From: Escherichia phage vB_Eco_NR1
Reading direction: 5' to 3' (one strand)
Length of the DNA: 64,000 nucleotides
Sequence record: LR990704
Shown: one piece after another, positions 9,904 to 58,753 of the stretch
Layout of the letters: the number at the start of each line of letters is the position of its first letter
Numbering within the stretch: the first letter of the stretch is position 1
Translations under genes and position numbers: made by a program
Notes under the pieces: model-generated
What the model saw: the letters and a program-made list of their open reading frames with translations, nothing else
The model's database searches: none
What the model was told of the DNA's origin: nothing

Positions 9904-11415
9904 ATGACTGACATTAAAGTACATTTTTATGATTTTAGTCACGTGAGAATTGATTGTGAAGAAAGTACATTTCATGAACTCCGTGATTTCTTTAGCTTTG
10001 AAGCTGATGGGTATCGTTTTAATCCGAAATACAAATATGGCCACTGGGATGGACGAATCCGTCTTTTAGATTATAATCGTCTTCTTCCATTCGGCTTAGT
10101 CGGGCAAATTAAAAAGTTCTGTGATAACTTTGGCTATAAAGCCTGGATTGACCCACAGATTAACGAAAAAGAAGAATTATCAAGAAAAGATTTTGATGAA
10201 TGGCTTTCTAAATTAGAAATCTATTCAGGAAATAAAAGAATTGAACCGCACTGGTATCAAAAAGATGCAGTGTTCGAAGGATTAGTTAATCGTCGTAGAA
10301 TTCTTAATCTTCCAACATCTGCAGGTAAATCTTTAATTCAAGCTTTGCTTGCGCGATATTATTTGGAAAATTATGAAGGTAAAATTCTTATCATTGTTCC
10401 AACAACTGCCTTAACAACTCAGATGGCTGATGACTTCGTTGACTATCGTTTATTCAGTCATGCAATGATAAAGAAAATTGGTGGCGGAGCATCAAAAGAT
10501 GATAAATATAAAAATGATGCACCAGTCGTTGTTGGTACATGGCAAACTGTAGTAAAACAACCGAAAGAATGGTTCTCACAGTTTGGAATGATGATGAATG
10601 ATGAATGTCATCTTGCTACAGGAAAAAGTATTTCATCCATCATATCAGGTTTAAATAACTGCATGTTCAAATTTGGTCTATCAGGTTCATTACGTGATGG
10701 CAAAGCCAATATCATGCAGTATGTTGGGATGTTTGGTGAAATATTTAAACCAGTAACGACTTCTAAATTAATGGAAGATGGACAAGTAACTGAGCTAAAA
10801 ATTAATAGTATTTTTCTTCGCTATCCCGATGAGTTCACTACTAAATTAAAGGGAAAAACTTATCAAGAAGAAATAAAAATTATTACTGGGCTTAGTAAAA
10901 GAAATAAATGGATCGCTAAATTAGCTATTAAGCTTGCACAAAAAGATGAAAACGCTTTTGTCATGTTTAAACATGTATCACATGGTAAAGCTATTTTCGA
11001 TTTAATTAAAAATGAATACGATAAAGTTTATTACGTATCAGGGGAAGTTGATACCGAAACGCGCAATATAATGAAAACCTTAGCTGAAAATGGTAAAGGA
11101 ATAATTATAGTAGCGAGTTATGGTGTATTTTCTACTGGTATTTCAGTTAAAAATCTGCATCACGTTGTTTTAGCGCACGGTGTTAAATCAAAAATCATTG
11201 TATTACAAACAATCGGTCGTGTATTACGTAAGCATGGTTCTAAGACAATAGCAACAGTCTGGGACCTCATAGATGATTGTGGTGTTAAGCCAAAATCTGC
11301 TAATACGAAAAAGAAATATGTTCATTTGAACTATCTTTTAAAACACGGCATTGATCGTATTCAGCGCTACGCAGATGAAAAATTTAATTACGTAATGAAA
11401 ACAGTTAATTTATAA
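9904..11415 (+). CDS. uvsW: UvsW DNA/RNA helicase
   Basis: 503 aa; Walker A (..LNLPTSAGKS..) and DEAH-like (..MMMNDECHLA..) motifs; late promoter upstream. Confidence 0.93.
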   Translation: MTDIKVHFYDFSHVRIDCEESTFHELRDFFSFEADGYRFNPKYKYGHWDGRIRLLDYNRLLPFGLVGQIKKFCDNFGYKAWIDPQINEKEELSRKDFDEWLSKLEIYSGNKRIEPHWYQKDAVFEGLVNRRRILNLPTSAGKSLIQALLARYYLENYEGKILIIVPTTALTTQMADDFVDYRLFSHAMIKKIGGGASKDDKYKNDAPVVVGTWQTVVKQPKEWFSQFGMMMNDECHLATGKSISSIISGLNNCMFKFGLSGSLRDGKANIMQYVGMFGEIFKPVTTSKLMEDGQVTELKINSIFLRYPDEFTTKLKGKTYQEEIKIITGLSKRNKWIAKLAIKLAQKDENAFVMFKHVSHGKAIFDLIKNEYDKVYYVSGEVDTETRNIMKTLAENGKGIIIVASYGVFSTGISVKNLHHVVLAHGVKSKIIVLQTIGRVLRKHGSKTIATVWDLIDDCGVKPKSANTKKKYVHLNYLLKHGIDRIQRYADEKFNYVMKTVNL

Positions 11416-11430
11416 GGGCTTCGGCCCTTT
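11415..11430 (+). terminator. GC stem-loop between uvsW and uvsW.1 (weak terminator or RNA structure)
   Basis: AGGGC-TTCG-GCCCT followed only by TTT. Confidence 0.45.
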
Positions 11431-11440
11431 GGAGAAAAAG

Positions 11441-11671
11441 ATGTTACTAGAATTTAAACAATTTCTTTATGAAGCTTCTATTGATGAATTTATGGGTAAA
11501 ATTGCCTCTTGTCAAACATTAGAAGGTTTAGAAGAACTTGAAGCTTATTATAAGAAAAGAGTTAAAGAAACTGAATTAAAAGATACTGATGACATCTCTG
11601 TGAGAGATGCTTTGGCAGGAAAAAGAGCTGAATTAGAAGATTCAGACGATGAAGTAGAAGAAAGCTTTTAA
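11441..11671 (+). CDS. uvsW.1: UvsW.1 small acidic protein
   Basis: 76 aa from the ATG at 11441 (the provided ORF starts at an upstream TTG); separate frame from uvsW, after its stop and a GC hairpin. Confidence 0.75.
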   Translation: MLLEFKQFLYEASIDEFMGKIASCQTLEGLEELEAYYKKRVKETELKDTDDISVRDALAGKRAELEDSDDEVEESF

Positions 11672-20267: not shown

Positions 20268-20321
20268 TCCTCATGTTATGTCAGTAAGACTACTATAACA
20301 CAACACGAGGGACTTGTAAAC
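20268..20321 (-). repeat. 54 bp early promoter/5' leader cassette, copy 1
   Basis: 53 of 54 nt identical to 35115..35168; minus strand GTTTACA, 17 nt, TATAGT, then leader ending in GAGGA. Confidence 0.85.
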
Positions 20322-22378
20322 TACATTTTGAACTTTTTAGACATTCCGTTGATGTTAACCAAAGAAGCTAAGATTTGAGAAACTTCATTTTCCTCTTCTT
20401 TTGATTCTTCTACAAGGAATTGATTAAATCCAGCCATTGGACGAACTTCACCAGTTTCCATTAAATGGTCGCCATCATATACTGATTCTTCTAATTGTTC
20501 AGAAGGAGGAACGATTGTACCTTCTATTAGATACTTGTTATAAGCAGTTTCTTTCATAAAGTACGTGCTCACTTTATTAATCTTCAGTAAAATTCCACGC
20601 GGTAGAATAACTTCAGCTTCTGATGGAAATCCTGATAAATGACCTGGAACGATAACTTTGATTCGCTCAGCTCCTTTAATTACCATACCCACGCTAATTT
20701 CAGCATCTTCATTAGCATATGTAGAATGACTACCCATATGCATCAAATCTTCTGCATCAACGGAACCTTCTCCTTCACCAGAAAATACTGCACCGGAATC
20801 ATCTAGAGCCATATAGTTTTTACCATGCTCACCGAAGATATTTGGTTTAAGCGATGTGGATACGAAGTTCTTGAAATAGAACATTTTATTTTCAATGTTA
20901 TGACGCAAAGTTTTAAAGGTAACTTCTTGCCCACGATAAAGAGTAGTTCCTGGAGGAAGAACAGAACCTTTAGCAAATGCAGAATCCAACGTCTCGATGT
21001 GTTTAATAGCTCGTTCCATATATTCTTCACGGGTAGAATCAGGTTTACCTAAAAGGAACGAGTTCATTTCAACATATGAATCTGCACAATAATCTTCAAT
21101 TACATCAGACTCAGCCTGAGTTAATCCTTTTGGAGTTACTTCAGTGCTTGCGTATTCATATGCCTGAGCGGCAGATTCATTAATCAATTTATAAATGCCA
21201 TTCATGACAAATTGAATAATAGCTGTCTTTTCATCTGGTGTAGCTTTAGAACCTTTAACTAAATCATTGATAATTTTCTTAATAACATCAAAGCTATTAG
21301 AAATATTAATGTCAGCAAGATCGCTTAAAATTTTATCAGTTTTATAATCAAAGAATTCTTTATTCTTTAAATATTCTTGAGAACCTTGATATGTTATATC
21401 GCTCTGCAACTTGATAGATGGATCACGTAAACGTGCATGGGCTAATGCAATATGATTTCGGAAACTTTCTAGTTCATAATCGTTAGATTTAAAACGAGAA
21501 GCACTTCTCATACCACCGATAGCTCCTTTGCTAAAGTTTGAACCAATCTGAATAACGCCAGAGTTCATCGGACCTTCTGCTTTATATACCGGAACTTTAG
21601 ATTCAAACTCTTGATATTTCTTAGCAGCGAAGCTATCACCCTGAAGTGAAGCATCAACAGTAGAATATTGAGCTTGTGCTGCTAATCGACGACTAATTTT
21701 AGTTTTCTGAATAACAGCTTGGTCCGTGCGCTTATCATTTTCTAAAGCAATAGAAGCAGCAACAGCAACAGCTTTAGGAACAGCATTACCTGTTTTAACA
21801 TCTACATAAACATCACCAATCTTTGATTCAACTTTTGCGAATAACTCAGTTGAAATAGGAGGTACACCTGGAATGTCTTCTAAATTGGCATTTTTACGGT
21901 AAACCATAATATATGCGTACTTTTTATCATAATCCCAGATTTCCTTTAAAAGAACATATCGACCTGCTCCTTTAGTACGTACTAAACGGTCAGCAATAAC
22001 TTGCATTTGACGAGCTGCGCCATTTGTTTTACTTTTTAGTACGCGGAATAGGCATGCGTCGATTTTATACTGTTTCATTGTTTGAAGAGCAGTATCAAAA
22101 ACAGCATTAATGACGCCAATTGGATTTCCACCCAAGTTTCTAAGCTTGACTAACGATAATTTCTCGTTGACACCTATCATTACGATATGCATCATTTTGT
22201 CGCCTGGCTTAACGTTTTTATTCGTATCACCGCCAGAGGTGTATGTACAAAATCTAAATCCAGGAAGCACGCTTTCTTCACCGGCTTGAATAGCAAAAAT
22301 TTGTGGTATTTTATGCTTAGGATTTAAGTTAACAACCGGCGCCGAAGCGCCGTCAAATAATTCTGTAATAAGTTCCAT
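20321..22378 (-). CDS. Alt-like ADP-ribosyltransferase, second paralogue (685 aa)
   Basis: N-terminus MELITELFD.. almost identical to Alt; C-terminal region has Arg (YRGQ), STS (FVSTSL) and EAE (PSEAEVILPRG) ART motifs. Confidence 0.85.
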   Translation of the reverse strand: MELITELFDGASAPVVNLNPKHKIPQIFAIQAGEESVLPGFRFCTYTSGGDTNKNVKPGDKMMHIVMIGVNEKLSLVKLRNLGGNPIGVINAVFDTALQTMKQYKIDACLFRVLKSKTNGAARQMQVIADRLVRTKGAGRYVLLKEIWDYDKKYAYIMVYRKNANLEDIPGVPPISTELFAKVESKIGDVYVDVKTGNAVPKAVAVAASIALENDKRTDQAVIQKTKISRRLAAQAQYSTVDASLQGDSFAAKKYQEFESKVPVYKAEGPMNSGVIQIGSNFSKGAIGGMRSASRFKSNDYELESFRNHIALAHARLRDPSIKLQSDITYQGSQEYLKNKEFFDYKTDKILSDLADINISNSFDVIKKIINDLVKGSKATPDEKTAIIQFVMNGIYKLINESAAQAYEYASTEVTPKGLTQAESDVIEDYCADSYVEMNSFLLGKPDSTREEYMERAIKHIETLDSAFAKGSVLPPGTTLYRGQEVTFKTLRHNIENKMFYFKNFVSTSLKPNIFGEHGKNYMALDDSGAVFSGEGEGSVDAEDLMHMGSHSTYANEDAEISVGMVIKGAERIKVIVPGHLSGFPSEAEVILPRGILLKINKVSTYFMKETAYNKYLIEGTIVPPSEQLEESVYDGDHLMETGEVRPMAGFNQFLVEESKEEENEVSQILASLVNINGMSKKFKM

Positions 22379-22381
22379 GAT

Positions 22382-24478
22382 TTATCCTTGAACGAACTTG
22401 TAAGGCATGTTTGTAATATCTATGCAAGACGCAATAATTCCAAGAGATGATTCTACTTTCTGTTTAATATTTGATGAAACAAATGATGCAAAGTCAACTC
22501 TGTCTTCTATTTCAATATCACCTGTCATTGCAACTACTTCGCCAGTTTCCATTAAACGGTCACCGTCATAAATTACCGATTCGGTGAGTTCTTCGGTGGT
22601 CATAACTTCAGCTTGAATGAGTTTTGTATTATTAGACGTGGTTCCGTCATTATTAGAAGCATCAGTTATTTTATTAACTTTGACCATCAATCCGCGCGGT
22701 AGAATAACTTCGGCTTCTGTTGCTATTCCGAGACTTCCTGGATATACAACATTAACTTTATGAGCTCCATCAATTGCCCATCCTATTTGAACTTTAACGT
22801 ATTCAGGATTTTCTTTATACGCTCTTATTTCGTTTGGATTAATAGTTATTCCTTCTTCATTTTTATCAACTGTTAATTCATTGCGAGCTTCTGGTTCTAA
22901 AAGACCAATACCAGCATGTGTAATTCCAAAACGTCCAAAAATGATAGGAGTTAAAGAAGTAGATACAAAATTTCTGAAATAGAACACTTTATTTTTAACT
23001 AGTGCTTCGTATATAGGAGCAGTCATACTTTGAGCACGATAAACTGTAATGCCTTCCGGTATACGGTCACCATTTTCAAAAGCTGAATCTAAATTATTTA
23101 TAGCAGATTCAATTTCTTTTTCACTCATTATATCATATCGTTCTGGATTGTAACGACCTAAAAGAAGATTATTGATGTCTGTATATCCTGAACCACAATA
23201 CTCTCTAATGCCGCGCTTTTGTGATGGAGTATATTTAGAACCATCACGGGCAATAGTAATATCAATCATTGGACCTGCACCAATTCCGGAAAAGCTATAA
23301 ATCATTCGTTTGAGGAATTTAGTTTTTGCTGCATTCCAGGCATTTTTAGTTATTTCTCCCCAGACTTCATCTGGTTGCCCTTTACGAGTTTTATTATGTT
23401 TATCAAGCCAATTATCTTTATATTCTTCAAAGAATTTATTAACAGCTGCTGCGTATTTCTCTAAACATTTTATTGAAGTAGTTGGTTCATTTTTGATTGC
23501 GTTAAAAATTACATCTTTAATTTTTTCGGAAACTTCATCAACCTCACTTTTTGAAAAGAATTTATAGTCATAGTGAAGTTCATTCGCAGTTCCTTCGGCA
23601 ATAATTTTTGCTGCCTTAGTTTTAGAAGCTAATGAATTAATTCCAAGCTTCATTTCTTCTGCTTCGGGAATTAAAGGAGCGGTAGCAGGTTTATTGAAAT
23701 TAGCTGCGGTAGATTCATACTTCTGGAATAATTCACTTTCAAATCTAGAAGACTCTAACGATTGACTTTGTGCAATTGCTCTACGGGAAATTTTAACTTT
23801 AACGATTACAGCTTGGTCAGAACGTTTATCGTTTTCTTGTGCAATAGATGCTGCAATTGCCTCATTTTTAGTTACTTGAGCCCCAGTATCTTTATTGATA
23901 TAAACATCACCGACCTTCGATTCAACTTTAGTAAAGAGCTCGGTACTAATTTCCGGAACTCCTGGAATGTCTTCTAGTGATACATTTTTGCGATGTATAA
24001 GAATATATGCATACTTTTTATCATAATCCCAGAGTTCCTTAAGAAGGACGTATCTGCCACCTGAACGACTACGGATAAGTCTATCAGCAATAACTTGAAT
24101 TTGTCGAGCTTGACCAGCGGTTTTAGACTTAAGAATACGGAGCATACAGGCATCAATTTTATACTGACGCATTGTTTGCATTGCAACAGTAAAAACTGAA
24201 TTGATATAATTAATTGGGCTTGGACCAAGACCTTTTAATTTAGCAATTGAACCTTTAGCAGTTAATGTAAAAGGAACAATATGCATCATTTTATCGCCCA
24301 TCTTTAAATCGCGATTAGTATCACCTCCAGATGTATAGGTACATAAACGAAAGCCTGGCTGTTCAATTGCATCATCAACGTGAACTGAAAAAATTTGCGG
24401 TATTTTCTTCTTTGGATTTAAGTTTGTAATCGGAAGAGTAGTATCTTCGTCAAATAATTCTGTAATAAGTTCCATCAT
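22382..24478 (-). CDS. alt: Alt ADP-ribosyltransferase (capsid-packaged, injected)
   Basis: 698 aa; MMELITELFDEDTTLPITNLNPKKKIPQIF.. recognised as T4 Alt; R / STS / EAE motifs; late promoter and SD upstream. Confidence 0.9.
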   Translation of the reverse strand: MMELITELFDEDTTLPITNLNPKKKIPQIFSVHVDDAIEQPGFRLCTYTSGGDTNRDLKMGDKMMHIVPFTLTAKGSIAKLKGLGPSPINYINSVFTVAMQTMRQYKIDACMLRILKSKTAGQARQIQVIADRLIRSRSGGRYVLLKELWDYDKKYAYILIHRKNVSLEDIPGVPEISTELFTKVESKVGDVYINKDTGAQVTKNEAIAASIAQENDKRSDQAVIVKVKISRRAIAQSQSLESSRFESELFQKYESTAANFNKPATAPLIPEAEEMKLGINSLASKTKAAKIIAEGTANELHYDYKFFSKSEVDEVSEKIKDVIFNAIKNEPTTSIKCLEKYAAAVNKFFEEYKDNWLDKHNKTRKGQPDEVWGEITKNAWNAAKTKFLKRMIYSFSGIGAGPMIDITIARDGSKYTPSQKRGIREYCGSGYTDINNLLLGRYNPERYDIMSEKEIESAINNLDSAFENGDRIPEGITVYRAQSMTAPIYEALVKNKVFYFRNFVSTSLTPIIFGRFGITHAGIGLLEPEARNELTVDKNEEGITINPNEIRAYKENPEYVKVQIGWAIDGAHKVNVVYPGSLGIATEAEVILPRGLMVKVNKITDASNNDGTTSNNTKLIQAEVMTTEELTESVIYDGDRLMETGEVVAMTGDIEIEDRVDFASFVSSNIKQKVESSLGIIASCIDITNMPYKFVQG

Positions 24479-26442: not shown

Positions 26443-27278
26443 TAGAATGCTCCTTGGAAAATATTATCACCACTAGTAGGTCTATTATACAAATACTCTA
26501 TGCCACCAGGTTTAATATAGTTCCATGTCTGAAACGGATGTGTCTGATATGGATGATATGGATTATAAGGATTAAATCCAGGAGTTCTCCAGGTAGTGTT
26601 CCAACGAAAAGAATCATTTTTAATCATCTTTTCAATTACATCTTTTATAGCTTTTTCACTATCAAAACTTTCTTTATTTTCCTTTGGTGAAAAAAGCTTA
26701 TTCTCTACATCGTTCCATGTATAAACTCGCTGAGCGGTTTTTGGAATACTGTCACGTTCCCCTCGAGCCATCCAATACACAGGAACACGTAATATTTCAC
26801 TCGCATGATCGCAGTGGTGAGCGAGATCGTCAATATAACAAATTACGTTATATTTCTCTTTTGCCTTTTTGAACAACTCTTCTTTTGAAGAATCATGACC
26901 ACACATCATTACTTCTGAGAAGGCACCAGGAAAAAGAGCATTCAAATTAAATTGACGATTCAGCAGAGCGTCAATAGAATCACCCAATGCTGTAACAGCT
27001 ACAAAATTATAATCTTCTTTTAATTTGTTAATTACACACAGAGCATCTTTATATGGAGACAAATAACGAATAAAATCTGATCGATTGTATTTTTCAATTA
27101 GCTTAACGCCAAGTTCTTCATCACAGTTAAAGAGTTTACCAGGAGAAATAAATTTCTCATCCTGGATCATTTTTAAAATATGTTCTAACGGAAGATTATA
27201 TTTCTGAGCAAAATAAGGAAGGCCTGATTGCCAGCTTAAACATACTCCATCAATATCAGTTAAAATAGTAGGCTTCAT
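26442..27278 (-). CDS. 30.2: HAD-superfamily hydrolase-like protein (T4 30.2 position)
   Basis: 278 aa; N-terminal DIDGV motif (HAD motif I). Confidence 0.75.
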   Translation of the reverse strand: MKPTILTDIDGVCLSWQSGLPYFAQKYNLPLEHILKMIQDEKFISPGKLFNCDEELGVKLIEKYNRSDFIRYLSPYKDALCVINKLKEDYNFVAVTALGDSIDALLNRQFNLNALFPGAFSEVMMCGHDSSKEELFKKAKEKYNVICYIDDLAHHCDHASEILRVPVYWMARGERDSIPKTAQRVYTWNDVENKLFSPKENKESFDSEKAIKDVIEKMIKNDSFRWNTTWRTPGFNPYNPYHPYQTHPFQTWNYIKPGGIEYLYNRPTSGDNIFQGAF

Positions 27279-27598
27279 AGAGAGTCTCTTAATAGGTTTA
27301 ACACATCAATAAATTCAGCTTCGGTTAGTATTGTATCATCTTTTGTTAGACCACTAGCCATGCTGTGCTTCAAAACTTTTCCTTTCGAGGCTTGTAATGC
27401 ATCACGAAAGCCCTTGTTTTGGATCGCTGCTTCAAAATATGCATTTGTGTATAATTCTTTCCACGCCGGGGAGTATCTTGAAAATGGAACTCCAAGCCAG
27501 AAGAAGGGTCCCACGGTCCTGAGCTCTAGCATAAGACCTTCCAGCTTGTTGAGCGGCAAGCCCGGATAACCCAAATATACGACGTTGTTGTTCAACAT
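27275..27598 (-). CDS. 30.3: NADAR-like domain, C-terminal segment (T4 30.3 position)
   Basis: 107 aa ORF; ..SRYSPAWKELYTNAYFEAAIQNKGFRDALQ.. resembles the C-terminal half of YbiA/NADAR proteins. Confidence 0.55.
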   Translation of the reverse strand: MLNNNVVYLGYPGLPLNKLEGLMLELRTVGPFFWLGVPFSRYSPAWKELYTNAYFEAAIQNKGFRDALQASKGKVLKHSMASGLTKDDTILTEAEFIDVLNLLRDSL

Positions 27599-27740
27599 TT
27601 TTCACCTTGCACCCTTGGAGGAATCCTTCAAGACCTCCAAATTGAATACCATCCATAACGAAAGGCCATTGGGCGAAATTACTTAATGCGCATGATGGCC
27701 ATCTAAAATTACTTCTAATCTCTAACTCAGACATTTTCAA
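27432..27740 (-). CDS. 30.3': NADAR-like domain, N-terminal segment in an overlapping frame (T4 30.3' position)
   Basis: 102 aa ORF; ..LSNFAQWPFVMDGIQF..EGFLQGCK.. resembles the N-terminal NADAR motif; overlaps 27432..27598 in a different frame. Confidence 0.5.
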   Translation of the reverse strand: MKMSELEIRSNFRWPSCALSNFAQWPFVMDGIQFGGLEGFLQGCKVKNVEQQRRIFGLSGLAAQQAGRSYARAQDRGTLLLAWSSIFKILPGVERIIHKCIF

Positions 27741-28858: not shown

Positions 28859-28887
28859 ATAATATCATATCCTGTACCAAAGTAAAC
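28859..28887 (-). promoter_or_regulatory. sigma70-type early promoter upstream of 30.7, -10 bracketed by an 8 bp inverted repeat
   Basis: Minus strand GTTTAC, 17 nt, TATTAT; inverted repeat GGTACAGG / CCTGTACC at 28848..28878. Confidence 0.5.
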
Positions 28888-29032
28888 AATTATTTTACTA
28901 CTTTCCAGTGCTTCATGTCAAGTTTACCAACTTTTTTCATCTTCTCAATTAAGCGTTCGGCACGTTGGCGAGCTGTAACATAATGCCATTCACCTAATTC
29001 ATTTTGTTCAATTTTTCCAACGATTACTGTAT

Positions 29033-29221
29033 TCAATTCATAAATCCAACCAGTAAAGAAATTATGAACTTGAATTGTAAAGGTGAAATCTGTTCCATAC
29101 CTTCTGCTGTTTCTACTTCAATAATATCACCTTCAACTGCCATTAAGAACCACATAGTTTCATCATATTTACCATTGAAGCATTTAGTTTTAACTGTAGC
29201 GTTCAGATTAATCGTTTTCAT
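29033..29221 (-). CDS. 30.8: hypothetical protein, 62 aa, possibly the N-terminal part of a frameshifted 30.8
   Basis: ORF with SD (AAGGAG) and early promoter upstream; the -1 frame stays open for about 46 more codons to 28890. Confidence 0.55.
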   Translation of the reverse strand: MKTINLNATVKTKCFNGKYDETMWFLMAVEGDIIEVETAEGMEQISPLQFKFIISLLVGFMN

Positions 29222-29294
29222 TTTATTCTCCTTTGTTTGTGTAAGATAATACTATCACAAAGGAGCTATACTGTAAACAACTTTATGCAATCTT

Positions 29295-29327
29295 TGGAAA
29301 ATAAAAAAGGACTCCCGAAGGAGTCCT
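29295..29327 (-). terminator. intrinsic terminator after 30.9
   Basis: AGGACUCC-UUCG-GGAGUCCU stem-loop followed by UUUUUUAUUUU on the minus strand. Confidence 0.8.
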
Positions 29328-29331
29328 CAAC

Positions 29332-29508: not shown

Positions 29509-29628
29509 TATAAATTCTCTTTTAAATGAAAATGCAGGACTTATTGGCATTGCCTGCGCAAGCCCTCAAAGGGGTACTTAGGTTTTGAATATTTACCGAC
29601 AGGATAACCATAAACCTCGTCAACATAA

Positions 29629-29877
29629 TTACTTCAGTGTTACCACAAAGTGACGAACTGCTTTTCGTGCAGCGGAAGCCAGAGGCTTAGCATATTTAAG
29701 TTCATCTTTTTCCTGAAGCTCAGCAGCTAATGCAGTTTGAGCAGGATTCAGATGTTTGAAATAACGCAGGATTTCAAGAGCTTCGGCTTCAACATCAATA
29801 GATGCGCCATAGTTTTCGTGACCATTATTCCATGCGTTTCGTTGCAGTTCAAGAGCGTGTTGTAATTGTTTAATCAT
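29629..29877 (-). CDS. rIII: lysis inhibition accessory protein rIII
   Basis: 82 aa; MIKQLQHALELQRNAWNNG.. recognised as rIII. Confidence 0.9.
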   Translation of the reverse strand: MIKQLQHALELQRNAWNNGHENYGASIDVEAEALEILRYFKHLNPAQTALAAELQEKDELKYAKPLASAARKAVRHFVVTLK

Positions 29878-30024: not shown

Positions 30025-30360
30025 TCACTTATAAAGACACGGAATAGCTTTATAGTGACAAGTAACGAATTTTTGTTTAATTTCTTTTGGCTGCTTAAGA
30101 CCCAGAGCTACAAAAGGATGCGGAACGTTTCGAATTTGACCAACTGGAAGAGAAGTCAAATCACCGACTTCGCAGAAACCTTCAGGAACATCAGGACCAA
30201 CAGAGTGAACTACACACAGTTCAGGAACTTCACCTTGAACACGTTTACCGATAATAAGTCCTGATTCTGTAACTTCTTCATCACCGGCTTGTGCAGGTTC
30301 AGAAACTAAAATAACATATTCACCGACAGCACGAATTGGTAGCTGTTGTACTTCAGACAT
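30025..30360 (-). CDS. 31: co-chaperonin gp31 (GroES analogue)
   Basis: 111 aa; [21 protein letters not shown].. recognised as gp31. Confidence 0.95.
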
Positions 30361-54104: not shown

Positions 54105-57100
54105 ATGGCTACTTTAAAACAAATACAATTTAAAAGAAGCAAAACCGCAGGTGCACGTCCTGCTGCTTCAGTATTAGCCGAAGGTGAATTGGCTATAAAC
54201 TTAAAAGATAGAACACTTTTTACTAAAGATGATTCAGGAAATATCATTGATTTAAGCATTTCCACTGGCGGTAATATCAGTGGAAATATCACTCAAACTG
54301 GAGATTATTTACAGAACGGTACATATAATCTCAATGGAAATCAGTTTGTTTATGCAGGAAAATATATTGAATTTTTACCTAAAACTGCAGGTAATGGCGC
54401 TTGGGCAAATCAACACCTAAATAAAGCCCCTATTTTTACAGATTTAAGTTCAACTACTTCTACTTCAGAATACCATCCGCTAATTAAACAGCGTTATAAA
54501 GATGGGACTTTTTCTGTTGGTACGCTAGTAAACGAAGGAAGTTTTAAAATTCATTATATCAATGAATCGGGAACTTCAAAATACTGGACATTTCGTAGAG
54601 ATGGTGGATTTGTTGTTGATACAGGAAGTTTGACAGTAACAGATGGAAATATTTCTGCTTCTGGTAATATTAATTCGGCTACTGGGGTAGTTTCTGCGCC
54701 ACGTGTCAACACAAAAAATATTAACATAAGCACGAAAACCTTTATCCCGAATAATGACGCGGGTTATGACATTGTTTCTTTACCTACCTGGGTTTATAAC
54801 CCACCGGCCGATGGTTCCGACAATACTACAAATGGATTGAACTATTTGCGTAAATTACGTGCATCAAGCGCATCAAGTATTTTCCATGAAATTGTTGATT
54901 GTCGAAAAGGTAAGCCGCAAGAAATTTCTTGGTGGACTGGTGTAGGACCTTCGTCTTTCCAGTGGGCGTTTGATACCTCTGGACGTATTACTGCAGGTAA
55001 ATCTATTTCTGTAGGTCTTCCTGATAGTGGTACAAATGGTCGTTATCCTTTAGATTCTGCAATTTCTATTGGTATTGCGATTGGCGATAACGATACCGGT
55101 ATTAAATGGGTCCGCGATGGCGTTTATGACCTGATGGCTAACGGTATTTCATCTGCTACCATTTTGAATAATGGTATTAATAGTACTAAAAAATTGATGG
55201 TTGGTTATAGTCGAGATTCCGGTTCTACTTGGGATTTCCCAAATAATAACCAAGCAATGTTTACTGCGCGTACCGATGTTGATGGTAATAATAACGGCGA
55301 TGGACAGACTCATATCGGATATAGCAGCAATGCTAAGATGTATCACTATTTCCGTGGTACAGGTCGTATGTCCGTTAGTATGGGTGATGGGCTTCTTGTT
55401 GAGCCTGGCATTTTAGATATTAAAACCGGTTCTAATAGCGTTGCTATTAGAGCAGACGGAACAATTAACTCCACCCAGCGTATTTCTATGCGTACGGGCT
55501 TGTTTTTAAATGGTGATGATAATACTAATGCTTTATCGTTTAAAGCTCCTTCCGGTGTAGATGGTACCAAAACCATTAACTGGGATGCAGGTACTCGTAA
55601 TGGTCAGAATAAAAATACCGTAACCATTAAAGCATGGGGTAATTCATTTAACGCTGAAAAGGGTAATAGAGAAACTGTATTCGAAGTTTCAGATTCACAA
55701 GGTTATTATTTCTACGCTCAACGTACTAATCCTGCGTCAGGTCAAACAGTAGGTCCGGTTAACTTTAAATTTAACGGAACTGTCGAAACAGGCCATATCA
55801 TAGGCCTTGGTAATATAAGTGCCTCCGGTACAGGTTCTTTTGGTGGCAATGTTACTATGTCTAACGGTTTGTTTGTCCAAGGTGGTTCTTCTATTACAGG
55901 CCAAGTAAAAATTGGTGGAACAGCTGACGCATTAAGAATTTGGAATGCTGAATACGGCGCAATTTTCCGTCGTTCTGAAAGTAACTTTTATATTATTCCA
56001 ACTCTTAAAGATGCTGGAGAATCAGGTGGTATAAGTAATCTTAGACCATTGATAATAGAACTGAACACCGGCACAGTTAAAATGTCGCATGATGTTCATT
56101 TAGGAGATTCTGGATCTGGTACAGGATTATTACAAGTAAGTAATAGTCTTAAAACTATTAAAATGATATGTCCAGTAACTATTAATGAACGTAATGCAGC
56201 GCTTACTCTAGATTCTCCTTCATCTTCTTCTGCTAATTATTTACAAGGTTCTAAAGCTGGAATTAGATCGTGGTATGTTGGTCTTGGTGGCGCTGGAAGT
56301 GATTTATCGCTTTATAGTCAATCATATGGACACGGTCTTGTTATAAGCGATAATTTCGTGTCAATCAGTAAACCTCTTAAAGTCGGAAATGCCCAACTAG
56401 GAACTGACGGTAATATTACCAACGGTTCTGGTAATTTTGCTAACTTAAACACCACGCTAAATCGTAAAGTTAATTCTGGATTTATTACTTATGGAGCAAC
56501 TGCTGGATGGTATAAGTTTGCAACAGTAACAATGCCACAATCCACTTCTACGGTCTTCTTTAAAATAGCCGGTGGTTCTGGATTTAATAGTGGATTATTC
56601 ACACAATGCAATATTGCTGAAATTGTTTTACGTACTAGTAATGAAAGACCTGCTGACTTAAATGCTGTATTATACACAAGAACAATTGCAGCTGCATTTA
56701 AAAATATTGCAGTTAATAACGTCTCTGGAGATACATATGACATTTATGTTTATGCCGGAACATATTGCAATCAATTAACTTGTGAATGGTCATGTACCGA
56801 AAATGCTACTGTTAGCGTTATTGGTATTAACTCATCTACCCAATCACCTGTGGATGCTCTTCCAGATACAGCAGTTGATGGGCAAGTTGCTAATGTTCTT
56901 AATAACTTGGTTGATCGCGGCAAAGTTAAGCGTTATGAAGCCGATTCTGAAATAGCTATTAATAACCAAACTGGTATTCGTATTAGAAGCAACAGCGATA
57001 AAACTGGTTCTGTTGCTACAATGCTACGAAATGATGGCAGTAGTTTTTATATTCTGTTTACAGATAAAAATGCCACCGATGGCGAAGCAACTGTTAACGG

Positions 57101-57905
57101 TGATTGGAATAGTAAGCGTCCTTTCGCAATTAACTTAACAACAGGCGAAGTATTAATGAATAACGGCATAGCTGTTCGCAGTGCTGCTTTATTCTATAAT
57201 AGCATAAATGTCAAAGATAATGGTTCTATTAACTTTGATAAGTCTGGTGCTAACCCAAGAAATATGAGAATATTTCATGCTGGCGATGCTTCTCGTGGTA
57301 ACCGTATTGAAATTGCCGATGAAACTAACTATATTGCTTACTTTGAAAAAGCTCCAGGTGGAGCTAACCGCTTTGTAGTAAATAATGCTACTGTAGCTGG
57401 TGTTAACCAAATGAATTCATTTGGTATTAATATCAATAACGCACTTGGTGGAAATAGTATAGCATTTGGTGATAGCGATACTGGTATTAAGCAAAATGGC
57501 GATGGATTATTAGACATATATGCGAACAGCGTACAAGTATTCCGTTTCCAAAACGGTGATTTGTACTCATATAAAAATATAAATGCTCCAAACGTTTATA
57601 TTCGTTCTGATATTCGCTTAAAATCTAATTTCAAACCTATCGAAAATGCACTTGATAAAGTTGAAAAACTCAATGGTGTCATTTATGATAAAGCTGAATA
57701 CATCGGTGGAGAGGCAATTGAAACTGAAGCGGGTATTGTAGCTCAAACGTTACAAGACGTTTTACCAGAAGCCGTCCGTGAAACAGAAGACAGCAAGGGT
57801 AATAAAATACTCACTGTTTCTTCTCAAGCCCAGATTGCTCTTCTGGTTGAAGCTGTGAAAACGCTTTCTTCTCGTGTAAAAGAACTTGAATCTAAACTTA
57901 TGTAA
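54105..57905 (+). CDS. 37: long tail fibre distal subunit gp37 with C-terminal intramolecular chaperone-like domain
   Basis: 1266 aa; conserved N-terminus (MATLKQIQFKRSKTAGARPAAS..); C-terminal ..NAPNVYIRSDIRLKSNFKPIENALDKVEKLNGVIYDKAEY.. resembles self-cleaving chaperone domains. Confidence 0.93.
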   Translation: MATLKQIQFKRSKTAGARPAASVLAEGELAINLKDRTLFTKDDSGNIIDLSISTGGNISGNITQTGDYLQNGTYNLNGNQFVYAGKYIEFLPKTAGNGAWANQHLNKAPIFTDLSSTTSTSEYHPLIKQRYKDGTFSVGTLVNEGSFKIHYINESGTSKYWTFRRDGGFVVDTGSLTVTDGNISASGNINSATGVVSAPRVNTKNINISTKTFIPNNDAGYDIVSLPTWVYNPPADGSDNTTNGLNYLRKLRASSASSIFHEIVDCRKGKPQEISWWTGVGPSSFQWAFDTSGRITAGKSISVGLPDSGTNGRYPLDSAISIGIAIGDNDTGIKWVRDGVYDLMANGISSATILNNGINSTKKLMVGYSRDSGSTWDFPNNNQAMFTARTDVDGNNNGDGQTHIGYSSNAKMYHYFRGTGRMSVSMGDGLLVEPGILDIKTGSNSVAIRADGTINSTQRISMRTGLFLNGDDNTNALSFKAPSGVDGTKTINWDAGTRNGQNKNTVTIKAWGNSFNAEKGNRETVFEVSDSQGYYFYAQRTNPASGQTVGPVNFKFNGTVETGHIIGLGNISASGTGSFGGNVTMSNGLFVQGGSSITGQVKIGGTADALRIWNAEYGAIFRRSESNFYIIPTLKDAGESGGISNLRPLIIELNTGTVKMSHDVHLGDSGSGTGLLQVSNSLKTIKMICPVTINERNAALTLDSPSSSSANYLQGSKAGIRSWYVGLGGAGSDLSLYSQSYGHGLVISDNFVSISKPLKVGNAQLGTDGNITNGSGNFANLNTTLNRKVNSGFITYGATAGWYKFATVTMPQSTSTVFFKIAGGSGFNSGLFTQCNIAEIVLRTSNERPADLNAVLYTRTIAAAFKNIAVNNVSGDTYDIYVYAGTYCNQLTCEWSCTENATVSVIGINSSTQSPVDALPDTAVDGQVANVLNNLVDRGKVKRYEADSEIAINNQTGIRIRSNSDKTGSVATMLRNDGSSFYILFTDKNATDGEATVNGDWNSKRPFAINLTTGEVLMNNGIAVRSAALFYNSINVKDNGSINFDKSGANPRNMRIFHAGDASRGNRIEIADETNYIAYFEKAPGGANRFVVNNATVAGVNQMNSFGININNALGGNSIAFGDSDTGIKQNGDGLLDIYANSVQVFRFQNGDLYSYKNINAPNVYIRSDIRLKSNFKPIENALDKVEKLNGVIYDKAEYIGGEAIETEAGIVAQTLQDVLPEAVRETEDSKGNKILTVSSQAQIALLVEAVKTLSSRVKELESKLM

Positions 57906-57907
57906 AA

Positions 57908-57935
57908 GAGGGCTTCGGCCCTCTAAGGATTTTTA
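57908..57935 (+). terminator. stem-loop after gene 37
   Basis: AGAGGGC-TTCG-GCCCTCT stem-loop, short T-tract, directly before the gene 38 start. Confidence 0.55.
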
Positions 57936-58721
57936 ATGGCAATTGTAGGTGTTCCTGGCTGGATTGGTGAATCTGCCGTGAATGAAACTGGACAGCGTTG
58001 GATGGATGCTGCGATGAGAGCAGTTCGTGTTTCAGTTCCTGGTTGGATGAGCTCAATGGCTGGGCAATCTAAAGAAGTATATTATAGCATTGGTGCTAGC
58101 AATTCTTACAATAAAGACACACTAATAAATTGGATAAAAGCCCAAGGAAGTACTCCTGTTGTTATTACTATTACAGGAAATATCGTTTCTTCATCGACAG
58201 GTCAACCATGCTTAGATTTTCCTAGCTCATTAACTAATGCATACGTGACACTTAATATCAATTCAGGCGTGCATGTTTGGGGTCGCGGCGGGAATGGTGG
58301 AAATAACTCTGCTGGCGGAGCAGGAGGAACTGCAATAAATAACGGAATTGGAACTAGATTACGTATTAATAACAATGGTGTTATCGCAGGTGGCGGTGGC
58401 GGCGGTGGCGGCGGATACTACTCTCCTTTTTCACAAATGAGATTGACTTTTGGCGGTGGAGGTGGTCGTCCATTTGGTGCTGCTGGTGGGTCTGCTAATA
58501 TGGAACAGGGTGCTACTGCTGGTACTATTTCTGCGCCCGGTAAAGGGTCTGTCAATGGTATCTATAATGGCGGGAATGGTGGTGATGCCGGTGCCGCAGG
58601 AGGTAAATGTAATATTCGCGGTCAAGGATCAGAATATAACGGCGGCGCTGCTGGTAAAGCTGTTACTGGTAATGCTCCAACTTGGACTAAAGTTGGCACA
58701 ATATATGGTTCAAGAGTATAA
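57936..58721 (+). CDS. 38: gp38 receptor-recognising adhesin (T2-type) with glycine-rich motifs
   Basis: 261 aa; conserved N-terminus MAIVGVPGWIGESAVNETGQRWM..; glycine-rich motifs and a G9 run separating variable segments. Confidence 0.88.
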   Translation: MAIVGVPGWIGESAVNETGQRWMDAAMRAVRVSVPGWMSSMAGQSKEVYYSIGASNSYNKDTLINWIKAQGSTPVVITITGNIVSSSTGQPCLDFPSSLTNAYVTLNINSGVHVWGRGGNGGNNSAGGAGGTAINNGIGTRLRINNNGVIAGGGGGGGGGYYSPFSQMRLTFGGGGGRPFGAAGGSANMEQGATAGTISAPGKGSVNGIYNGGNGGDAGAAGGKCNIRGQGSEYNGGAAGKAVTGNAPTWTKVGTIYGSRV

Positions 58722-58753
58722 TTTTTGAATAAATATCCTTAAAAGGAGGGTCT

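Follow-up and report, generated by a model that had tools for sequence, protein, structure and literature searches.

Gene 30.8 of the Escherichia phage vB_Eco_NR1 (hereafter, NR1) is probably an authentic, natural frameshift null allele, that is, a recent pseudogene of a dispensable accessory gene. In the 64,000-nt stretch of NR1 DNA that was analyzed (sequence record LR990704; hereafter, the window), the gene has a single G fewer than its relatives, and its conserved coding sequence is divided between a 62-aa ORF and a downstream segment in the -1 frame. An authentic mutation is preferred because of the Illumina chemistry used for NR1, the restriction of private frameshifts to accessory genes, and the occurrence of the same allele in a clean, independent contig.

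Gene 30.8 and its divided reading frame

T4 proteins, when used as translated queries, map collinearly on the window at 95-100% identity. In INPHARED, which has no identical record, the complete genomes nearest to the window are those of Tequatroviruses, with ~97.5% identity (Kha5h). Gene 30.8 shows the synteny typical of T-even phages, being flanked by 30.9 and 30.7 within the block that runs from gene 30 to rIII. The locus and its surroundings comprise the following features.

29033..29221, minus strand: 62-aa ORF of gene 30.8, from ATG 29221..29219 to TGA 29035..29033; NR1 annotation CAD7712035.1
29221..29096, minus strand: residues 1-42 of the 62-aa ORF, the native gp30.8 N-terminus according to the T4 alignment
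29095..29096, minus strand: deletion site; the GGG of T4 and its aligned relatives consists of the final base of codon 42 (ATG) and the two leading bases of codon 43 (GGA)
28890..29096, minus strand: native gp30.8 residues 43-110 plus TAA, now -1 relative to the start codon
29117 to TAA 28890..28892, minus strand: open -1 frame, in the phase of 29219
28890..29036, minus strand: 48-aa TTG-initiated ORF, native residues 63-110; TTG 29036..29034 overlaps the TGA (TTGA)
29228..29233, minus strand: Shine-Dalgarno sequence AAGGAG, with a 6-nt spacer to the ATG at 29221; the same in relatives
29249..29277, minus strand: sigma-70/T4-early-type promoter-like site of 30.8 (TTTACA, 17 nt, TG-n-TAGTAT), a consensus match only
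29307..29328, minus strand: intrinsic terminator-like hairpin closing the upstream gene 30.9; a terminator is annotated at the homologous place in Kha5h
28921..28892, minus strand: promoter-like TTGACA-18-TAAAAT at the 3' end of 30.8, a consensus match only
28886..28859, minus strand: promoter-like TTTACT-16-TATTAT just past the 3' end of 30.8, a consensus match only
30025..30360, minus strand: neighboring T4 gene, gp31
29629..29877, minus strand: neighboring T4 gene, rIII (30.9 and 30.7 are likewise minus-strand neighbors)

From start to stop, 30.8 spans 332 nt in the window versus 333 nt (110 aa) in T4 and in the five relatives aligned with it (UFV-AREG1, Sf22, AR1, slur07, and Kha5h), all of which carry one intact CDS. 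The sole gap in this alignment falls where GGTATGGGAACAG of the relatives is matched by GGTATGGAACAG in the window, GGG having become GG. Residues 1-42 of T4 gp30.8 align with 29221..29096 at 95%, and residues 43-110 align with 29096..28893, in the other frame, at 98.5%. The frame therefore breaks at codons 42/43, and a stop follows 20 out-of-frame codons; these specify residues 43-62 of the ORF, EQISPLQFKFIISLLVGFMN, and run into the TGA at 29035..29033. The 62-aa product was identical to NR1 protein CAD7712035.1 in a protein search. The -1 frame comprises 75 codons plus its stop, with ~46 of these lying past the stop of the 62-aa ORF.

Both frames match the family profile PF06019 (Phage_30_8; 124 positions, curated gathering score of 25 bits, domain of ~105-121 aa). 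The 62-aa ORF covers profile positions 1-48 (70.8 bits), and the -1 frame covers positions 46-124 (117.8 bits); with E=3.5e-34 for the latter, the openness of the -1 frame is not due to chance. When one G is put back, the match extends over all positions 1-124 at 195.5 bits. The 48-aa TTG ORF retains positions 67-124. All 18 of the 18 full-length PF06019 representatives are single-frame, single-domain proteins; in the window, by contrast, the domain is divided over two frames at 29096. The intact 110-aa form of gp30.8 constitutes a 90%-identity cluster with 252 member sequences. Judged by sequence and synteny, the window locus belongs to the gp30.8 family, but without one intact frame, and is thus a putative pseudogene of that family.

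A preliminary description of this DNA had named the gene as 30.8 and reported a 62-aa ORF with a promoter and Shine-Dalgarno sequence, followed by a -1 frame open from 29117 to the TAA at 28890..28892 (~46 codons past the ORF), with a fused product of ~110 aa. The gene assignment holds, as T4 alignment, PF06019, and synteny agree; the ATG, the AAGGAG, and the promoter-like TTTACA-17-TG-TAGTAT are all seen, the -1 frame is as described, and intact T4 gp30.8 is indeed 110 aa in length. Two points call for amendment. The ORF and the -1 frame are, as proposed, two frames of one gene, but the break lies at codons 42/43 and not at the end of the ORF. Likewise, the -1 frame was said to possess neither a start codon nor a Shine-Dalgarno sequence of its own; the latter is indeed lacking, but TTG 29036..29034 opens a 48-aa ORF. 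A check was also made for homologues that stop at residue 62 and show no conservation past it; the homologues proved instead to be 110 aa in length, with the downstream frame conserved.

With regard to transcription, the terminator-like hairpin after 30.9 would set 30.8 apart as its own small transcription unit. The promoter-like sites at 28859..28921 would give independent expression of 30.7, such that little polarity is to be expected from the frameshift.

Occurrence of the deletion and other frameshifts

INPHARED was queried with 101 nt around the site, using both the window haplotype and the common haplotype, each of which returned 442-443 matching records. With either haplotype, no gap-free, full-length match to the deletion allele was found among ~440 INPHARED Tequatrovirus records, and the top hits at the 30.8 site all span 102 bases, i.e., they carry a gap relative to the query. 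The deletion-specific pattern was not found in IMG/VR or JGI metagenome contigs; with a two-allele pattern, all four of the matching IMG/VR contigs possessed GGG and none had the deletion. The identical deletion (GGTATGGAACAG) is present, from an unrelated run, in the 8,955-nt Logan contig SRR25464452_24 (L018 6001..6332). The contig, which comes from a different, undeposited Tequatrovirus (best INPHARED match only 97.5%), shows ~97% identity to the window as well as to T4 and Kha5h, and its SNPs differ 8 nt upstream of the site and further downstream. Its 30.3 gene is apparently intact, and every other gene on the contig is of the expected T4 length. The presence of an identical deletion on two backgrounds points either to repeated mutation of this site or to the transfer of an old allele by recombination.

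Loss of 30.8 has also occurred by another route. In the complete genome of vB_EcoM-RPN226 (OL770073.2), a deletion of ~1.67 kb spans a short microhomology, takes out 30.7 to 30.4, and joins codon 36 of 30.8 to the C-terminus of 30.3, with the following result.

L016 3001..3261: 86-aa chimeric ORF of RPN226, consisting of 30.8 residues 1-36 and the C-terminal 50 residues of 30.3

The same 30.8-30.3 fusion is seen in the Logan assembly of SRR27297327 (L017). The RPN226 deletion supports the dispensability of 30.8, or of the block as a whole. Two metagenome contigs with disrupted 30.8 genes were not counted as independent alleles, one (L014, P0002) having an inverted, chimeric end and the other (L015, P0003) having a coverage of 1.25x; the seeming cluster of independent events that they formed within the same 4 nt was dropped on account of the poor contigs.

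To place the deletion in context, indels were listed relative to Kha5h, UFV-AREG1, and T4 wherever the window aligns, and ~90 T4 CDSs were mapped onto the window. In the aligned parts, only two private CDS indels are not multiples of 3, namely those in 30.8 and 30.3. No private frameshift in an essential gene was found in the aligned parts of the window, and none in ~70 other T4 genes checked. Selection acting on real mutations would be expected to leave private frameshifts in small accessory genes only, as is seen here. Two further differences from T4 were considered and set aside as features of the lineage: a split in uvsW, initially a candidate third private frameshift, and an indel in cd.2, both of which are shared with Kha5h. 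The uvsW gene (9910..11668, plus strand) encodes UvsW (~502 aa) and UvsW.1 (~76 aa), with a junction at ~11413..11440; it is split, with a net +1, relative to the corrected 587-aa T4 reference, and Kha5h annotates both ORFs.

The second private frameshift involves the following features.

27275..27740, minus strand: gene 30.3 (adfN), with a +1 insertion at 27504
27734..27432, minus strand: N-terminal 30.3 fragment, 100 aa
27598..27275, minus strand: 30.3 ORF of 107 aa, identical to NR1_066 (CAD7712029.1)

On the gene strand, the window reads CCCTTCTTCTGG versus CCCT-CTTCTGG in T4, Kha5h, and UFV-AREG1, and the frame shifts at ~codon 78 of 152. The insertion appears to be private, as the best 25 of 426 INPHARED matches to a 101-nt query all lack it; these best 25 span 100 bases at 99.0% identity, the gap being the sole difference. 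A Logan contig once thought to share it (SRR21849201_1288, or L019; 983 nt, of uncertain quality) has a different extra A in 30.3, 14 nt downstream (GGATTGGAAGTTCC, L019 1..215). The adfN product is a NADAR DNA ADP-ribosylglycohydrolase that counters DarTG1 (bioRxiv 10.1101/2024.07.11.602962). In RB69, a natural +T frameshift in 30.3/adfN abolishes the anti-DarTG1 activity, and the phage is DarTG1-sensitive (bioRxiv 10.1101/2024.07.11.602962). By analogy, NR1 is predicted to be without AdfN activity and would be sensitive to DarTG1 unless adfA compensates.

Several other features of the window were recorded. The 30.9-rIII intergenic region (29550..29630) is unusually divergent, with four 1-nt indels within 50 nt, and is without ~125 nt of T4, Kha5h, and UFV-AREG1, the alignment breaking at 29626/29627; it looks like a replaced or deleted segment and not like scattered errors. 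At 20296..24475 on the minus strand, there are two full-length, tandem alt-like ADP-ribosyltransferase paralogues with ~68% DNA identity to each other. The pair is also found in Kha5h and UFV-AREG1; in T4, the place is occupied only by two short remnants, alt.-1 and alt.-2. The distal tail-fiber region (54105..58750) is not of the T4 type; identity to T4 gp37 is only 39%, and no match to T4 gp38 was found, which points to a different adhesin module (T2/T6-like or other). No match in the window was found for the T4 mobile/homing-endonuclease genes segD, segE, segG, and mobE, or for nrdB.1 and cd.4; unlike the window, Kha5h carries segE at the corresponding site. An intergenic A-run between motA and motA.1 (~62219) is 5 bases longer than that of T4 (~A12-13 vs. 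A6-7). Finally, gene 67, encoding the prohead core protein gp67, has an in-frame 9-nt deletion relative to Kha5h at position 1494, in the acidic C-terminal part, and T4 gp67 aligns to the window over residues 1-50 only.

Mutation, record error, and recoding

NR1 is a coliphage of the Durham Collection, used as a test phage for defense systems; its DNA, which carries hypermodified cytosines, was sequenced by MicrobesNG on an Illumina platform (paired-end reads of 250 bp), with SPAdes 3.7 used for assembly and Prokka for annotation (PMC13390438). The record itself might be at fault, such that the true phage possesses GGG and an intact 110-aa gp30.8, with one base lost in the deposited sequence. 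A sequencing or assembly error of this kind would accommodate a length change in a short homopolymer that is unique among ~440 related complete genomes, a downstream frame that is perfectly kept, the presence of another private 1-nt indel at a distance of 1.6 kb, in 30.3, and the two other disrupted 30.8 alleles that lie on poor contigs (1.25x coverage and a chimeric end, respectively). It is nonetheless unlikely. NR1's type of reads, assembled with SPAdes, seldom yields a consensus indel at a run of 3 bases, the contig from an unrelated run carries the identical deletion and is otherwise without broken genes, and random error would show no preference for the small, non-essential genes in which the two private frameshifts are found. 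Illumina reads taken together with an identical deletion in an unrelated run, on another haplotype, make random error improbable in particular; in DNA with hypermodified cytosines, a site-specific, systematic error (the run reads CCC on the plus strand) could in principle be the source in both datasets. The absence of decay in the downstream frame fits a recent mutation, and equally an artefact or some recoding. The preliminary description had offered an authentic indel and a sequencing error as its two preferred options, and between these, the evidence favors the authentic indel; we infer that the deletion resides in the phage itself and is not a read artefact.

Two further explanations would rescue some function from the divided gene. 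Programmed FRAMESHIFTING, whereby a -1 ribosomal frameshift or transcriptional slippage within 29117..29033 restores the ~110-aa protein (with VETAEGMGTDFTF as the trans-frame junction peptide of the restored gp30.8), could draw upon two weak single-tRNA slip sites in the overlap (T_TTA at 29081 and 29057), upon the 101 nt from 29085, which fold better than shuffled sequences (-22.4 kcal/mol, z = -2.69), and upon the observation of the allele in two phages that both keep an intact downstream frame. The overlap, however, contains neither an X_XXY_YYZ heptamer, as had already been pointed out in the preliminary description, nor a homopolymer of 5 or more, and the only XXXYYYZ in 30.8 (AAAAAAG at 28937) lies past the zero-frame stop. 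Were the ribosome to slip at either T_TTA, 4-12 residues of the native core would be exchanged for others. A stimulatory structure is expected 5-9 nt downstream of a slip site, and the predicted helix begins at the T_TTA itself, with a sequence identical in intact-gene relatives; since both the slip sites and the fold are unchanged in these single-frame phages, they are probably not adaptations. Whereas genuine programmed frameshifts are conserved, the two-frame arrangement is absent from ~440 relatives, and its only other occurrence is in one Logan contig; the break also coincides exactly with a 1-nt deletion from an ancestral single-frame state. Following scans for heptamers, single-site slips, and homopolymers, together with RNA folding, the programmed class was rejected as extremely improbable, and the earlier ranking of an indel or sequencing error above programmed frameshifting is upheld by the 1-nt deletion and the absence of the two-frame state from the ~440 genomes. 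Only slightly less improbable is a split gene, in which the stop at TGA 29035..29033 is coupled to a TTG restart and the resulting 62-aa and 48-aa fragments keep some function. The TTGA overlap has a geometry compatible with termination-reinitiation, the 48-aa ORF holds its share of PF06019 (positions 67-124), and a gene caller predicts an equivalent ORF in Logan contig SRR25464452_24. Set against this, TTG is a weak start with no visible Shine-Dalgarno sequence and is the native codon Leu63 in intact relatives, and neither fragment would contain native residues 43-62, the stretch that holds the invariant D45 and the long central strand (41-54). In addition, NR1's next accession, CAD7712034, lies upstream of 30.8 and leaves no gap for the 48-aa ORF, suggesting that the latter is unannotated.

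Predicted consequences and comparison with known systems

Under the preferred reading of an authentic null allele, one G would have been lost from the GGG run at codons 42/43 in a frameshift of the strand-slippage type, which is the probable mechanism of the deletion. Translation would begin normally, served by the promoter and Shine-Dalgarno sequence of 30.8 itself, and the ribosome would make 42 native residues, read 20 out-of-frame codons, and stop. The resulting 62-aa product, lacking ~60% of the fold, would render the locus a null allele of an early accessory gene, and the 68 downstream native codons would still be intact only because the mutation is recent. The AlphaFold model of intact gp30.8 (pLDDT 94.5, pTM 0.82) shows a single compact domain, rich in beta-strands and bearing a C-terminal helix. 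The parts that come after the break are strands 41-54, 60-63, 70-73, and 79-82, helix 84-98, and two short terminal strands; hence, six of the ten strands and the only helix are located after residue 42, and the 62-aa product is without the invariant D45, G99, and W106. On the basis of this model, a product without ~60% of the domain is presumably non-functional. Gene 30.8 itself appears to be dispensable. No functional annotation of gp30.8 was found in PDB, PADLOC, or PHROG.

The main value of these results is one of annotation. The 62-aa "conserved hypothetical protein" of NR1 should be labelled a frameshifted 30.8 pseudogene, and neither a new gene nor recoding should be seen in the open downstream frame. 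That NR1 has privately lost 30.8, and above all adfN, also matters for the interpretation of its defense-system sensitivity profile. A frameshift null of 30.8 is ordinary biology and opens no new biological question, the identical deletion on two backgrounds being the only mildly intriguing element. Together with the RPN226 loss and the private adfN frameshift of NR1, it might be taken to mean that gp30.8 has been repeatedly selected against, or that the G-run is a mutational hotspot serving as an on/off switch, although we consider this quite improbable. In the former case, gp30.8 might be sensed by, or be costly alongside, some host defense system. If either were true, it would provide the first functional handle on the structurally orphan gp30.8 family.

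Among known systems, the closest is gp30.8 of T4 itself (NP_049822.1; T4 129921..130253; PF06019; PHROG 1507), with which the window has the locus, promoter, Shine-Dalgarno sequence, and stop in common; the window differs in being without one G at codons 42/43, with a 62-aa product of which 42 residues are native. Slippage frameshifts of the Streisinger type were first defined in T4 lysozyme and rII, and in the window, too, a short mononucleotide run differs by one base in length, which is the class to be expected of spontaneous frameshifts, with no distinguishing feature. Programmed -1 frameshifting, as in E. coli dnaX (A_AAA_AAG) and the phage tail chaperone G/GT, likewise involves two overlapping frames of one protein family; in contrast to these systems, the window possesses no slippery heptamer, its arrangement is not conserved, and its ancestor was single-frame. 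RPN226, like the window, is a natural loss of intact gp30.8 in a Tequatrovirus, but by way of a ~1.67 kb deletion and an 86-aa chimera as opposed to a point frameshift. Together with RPN226 and the RB69 adfN mutation, the NR1 allele adds one more natural case in which the gene-30 to rIII accessory block tolerates knock-outs. The RB69 example resembles 30.8 of the window in being a natural, single-base frameshift of a small accessory gene in the same block of a viable isolate, and it differs in affecting another gene, one with a known function and a demonstrated phenotype.
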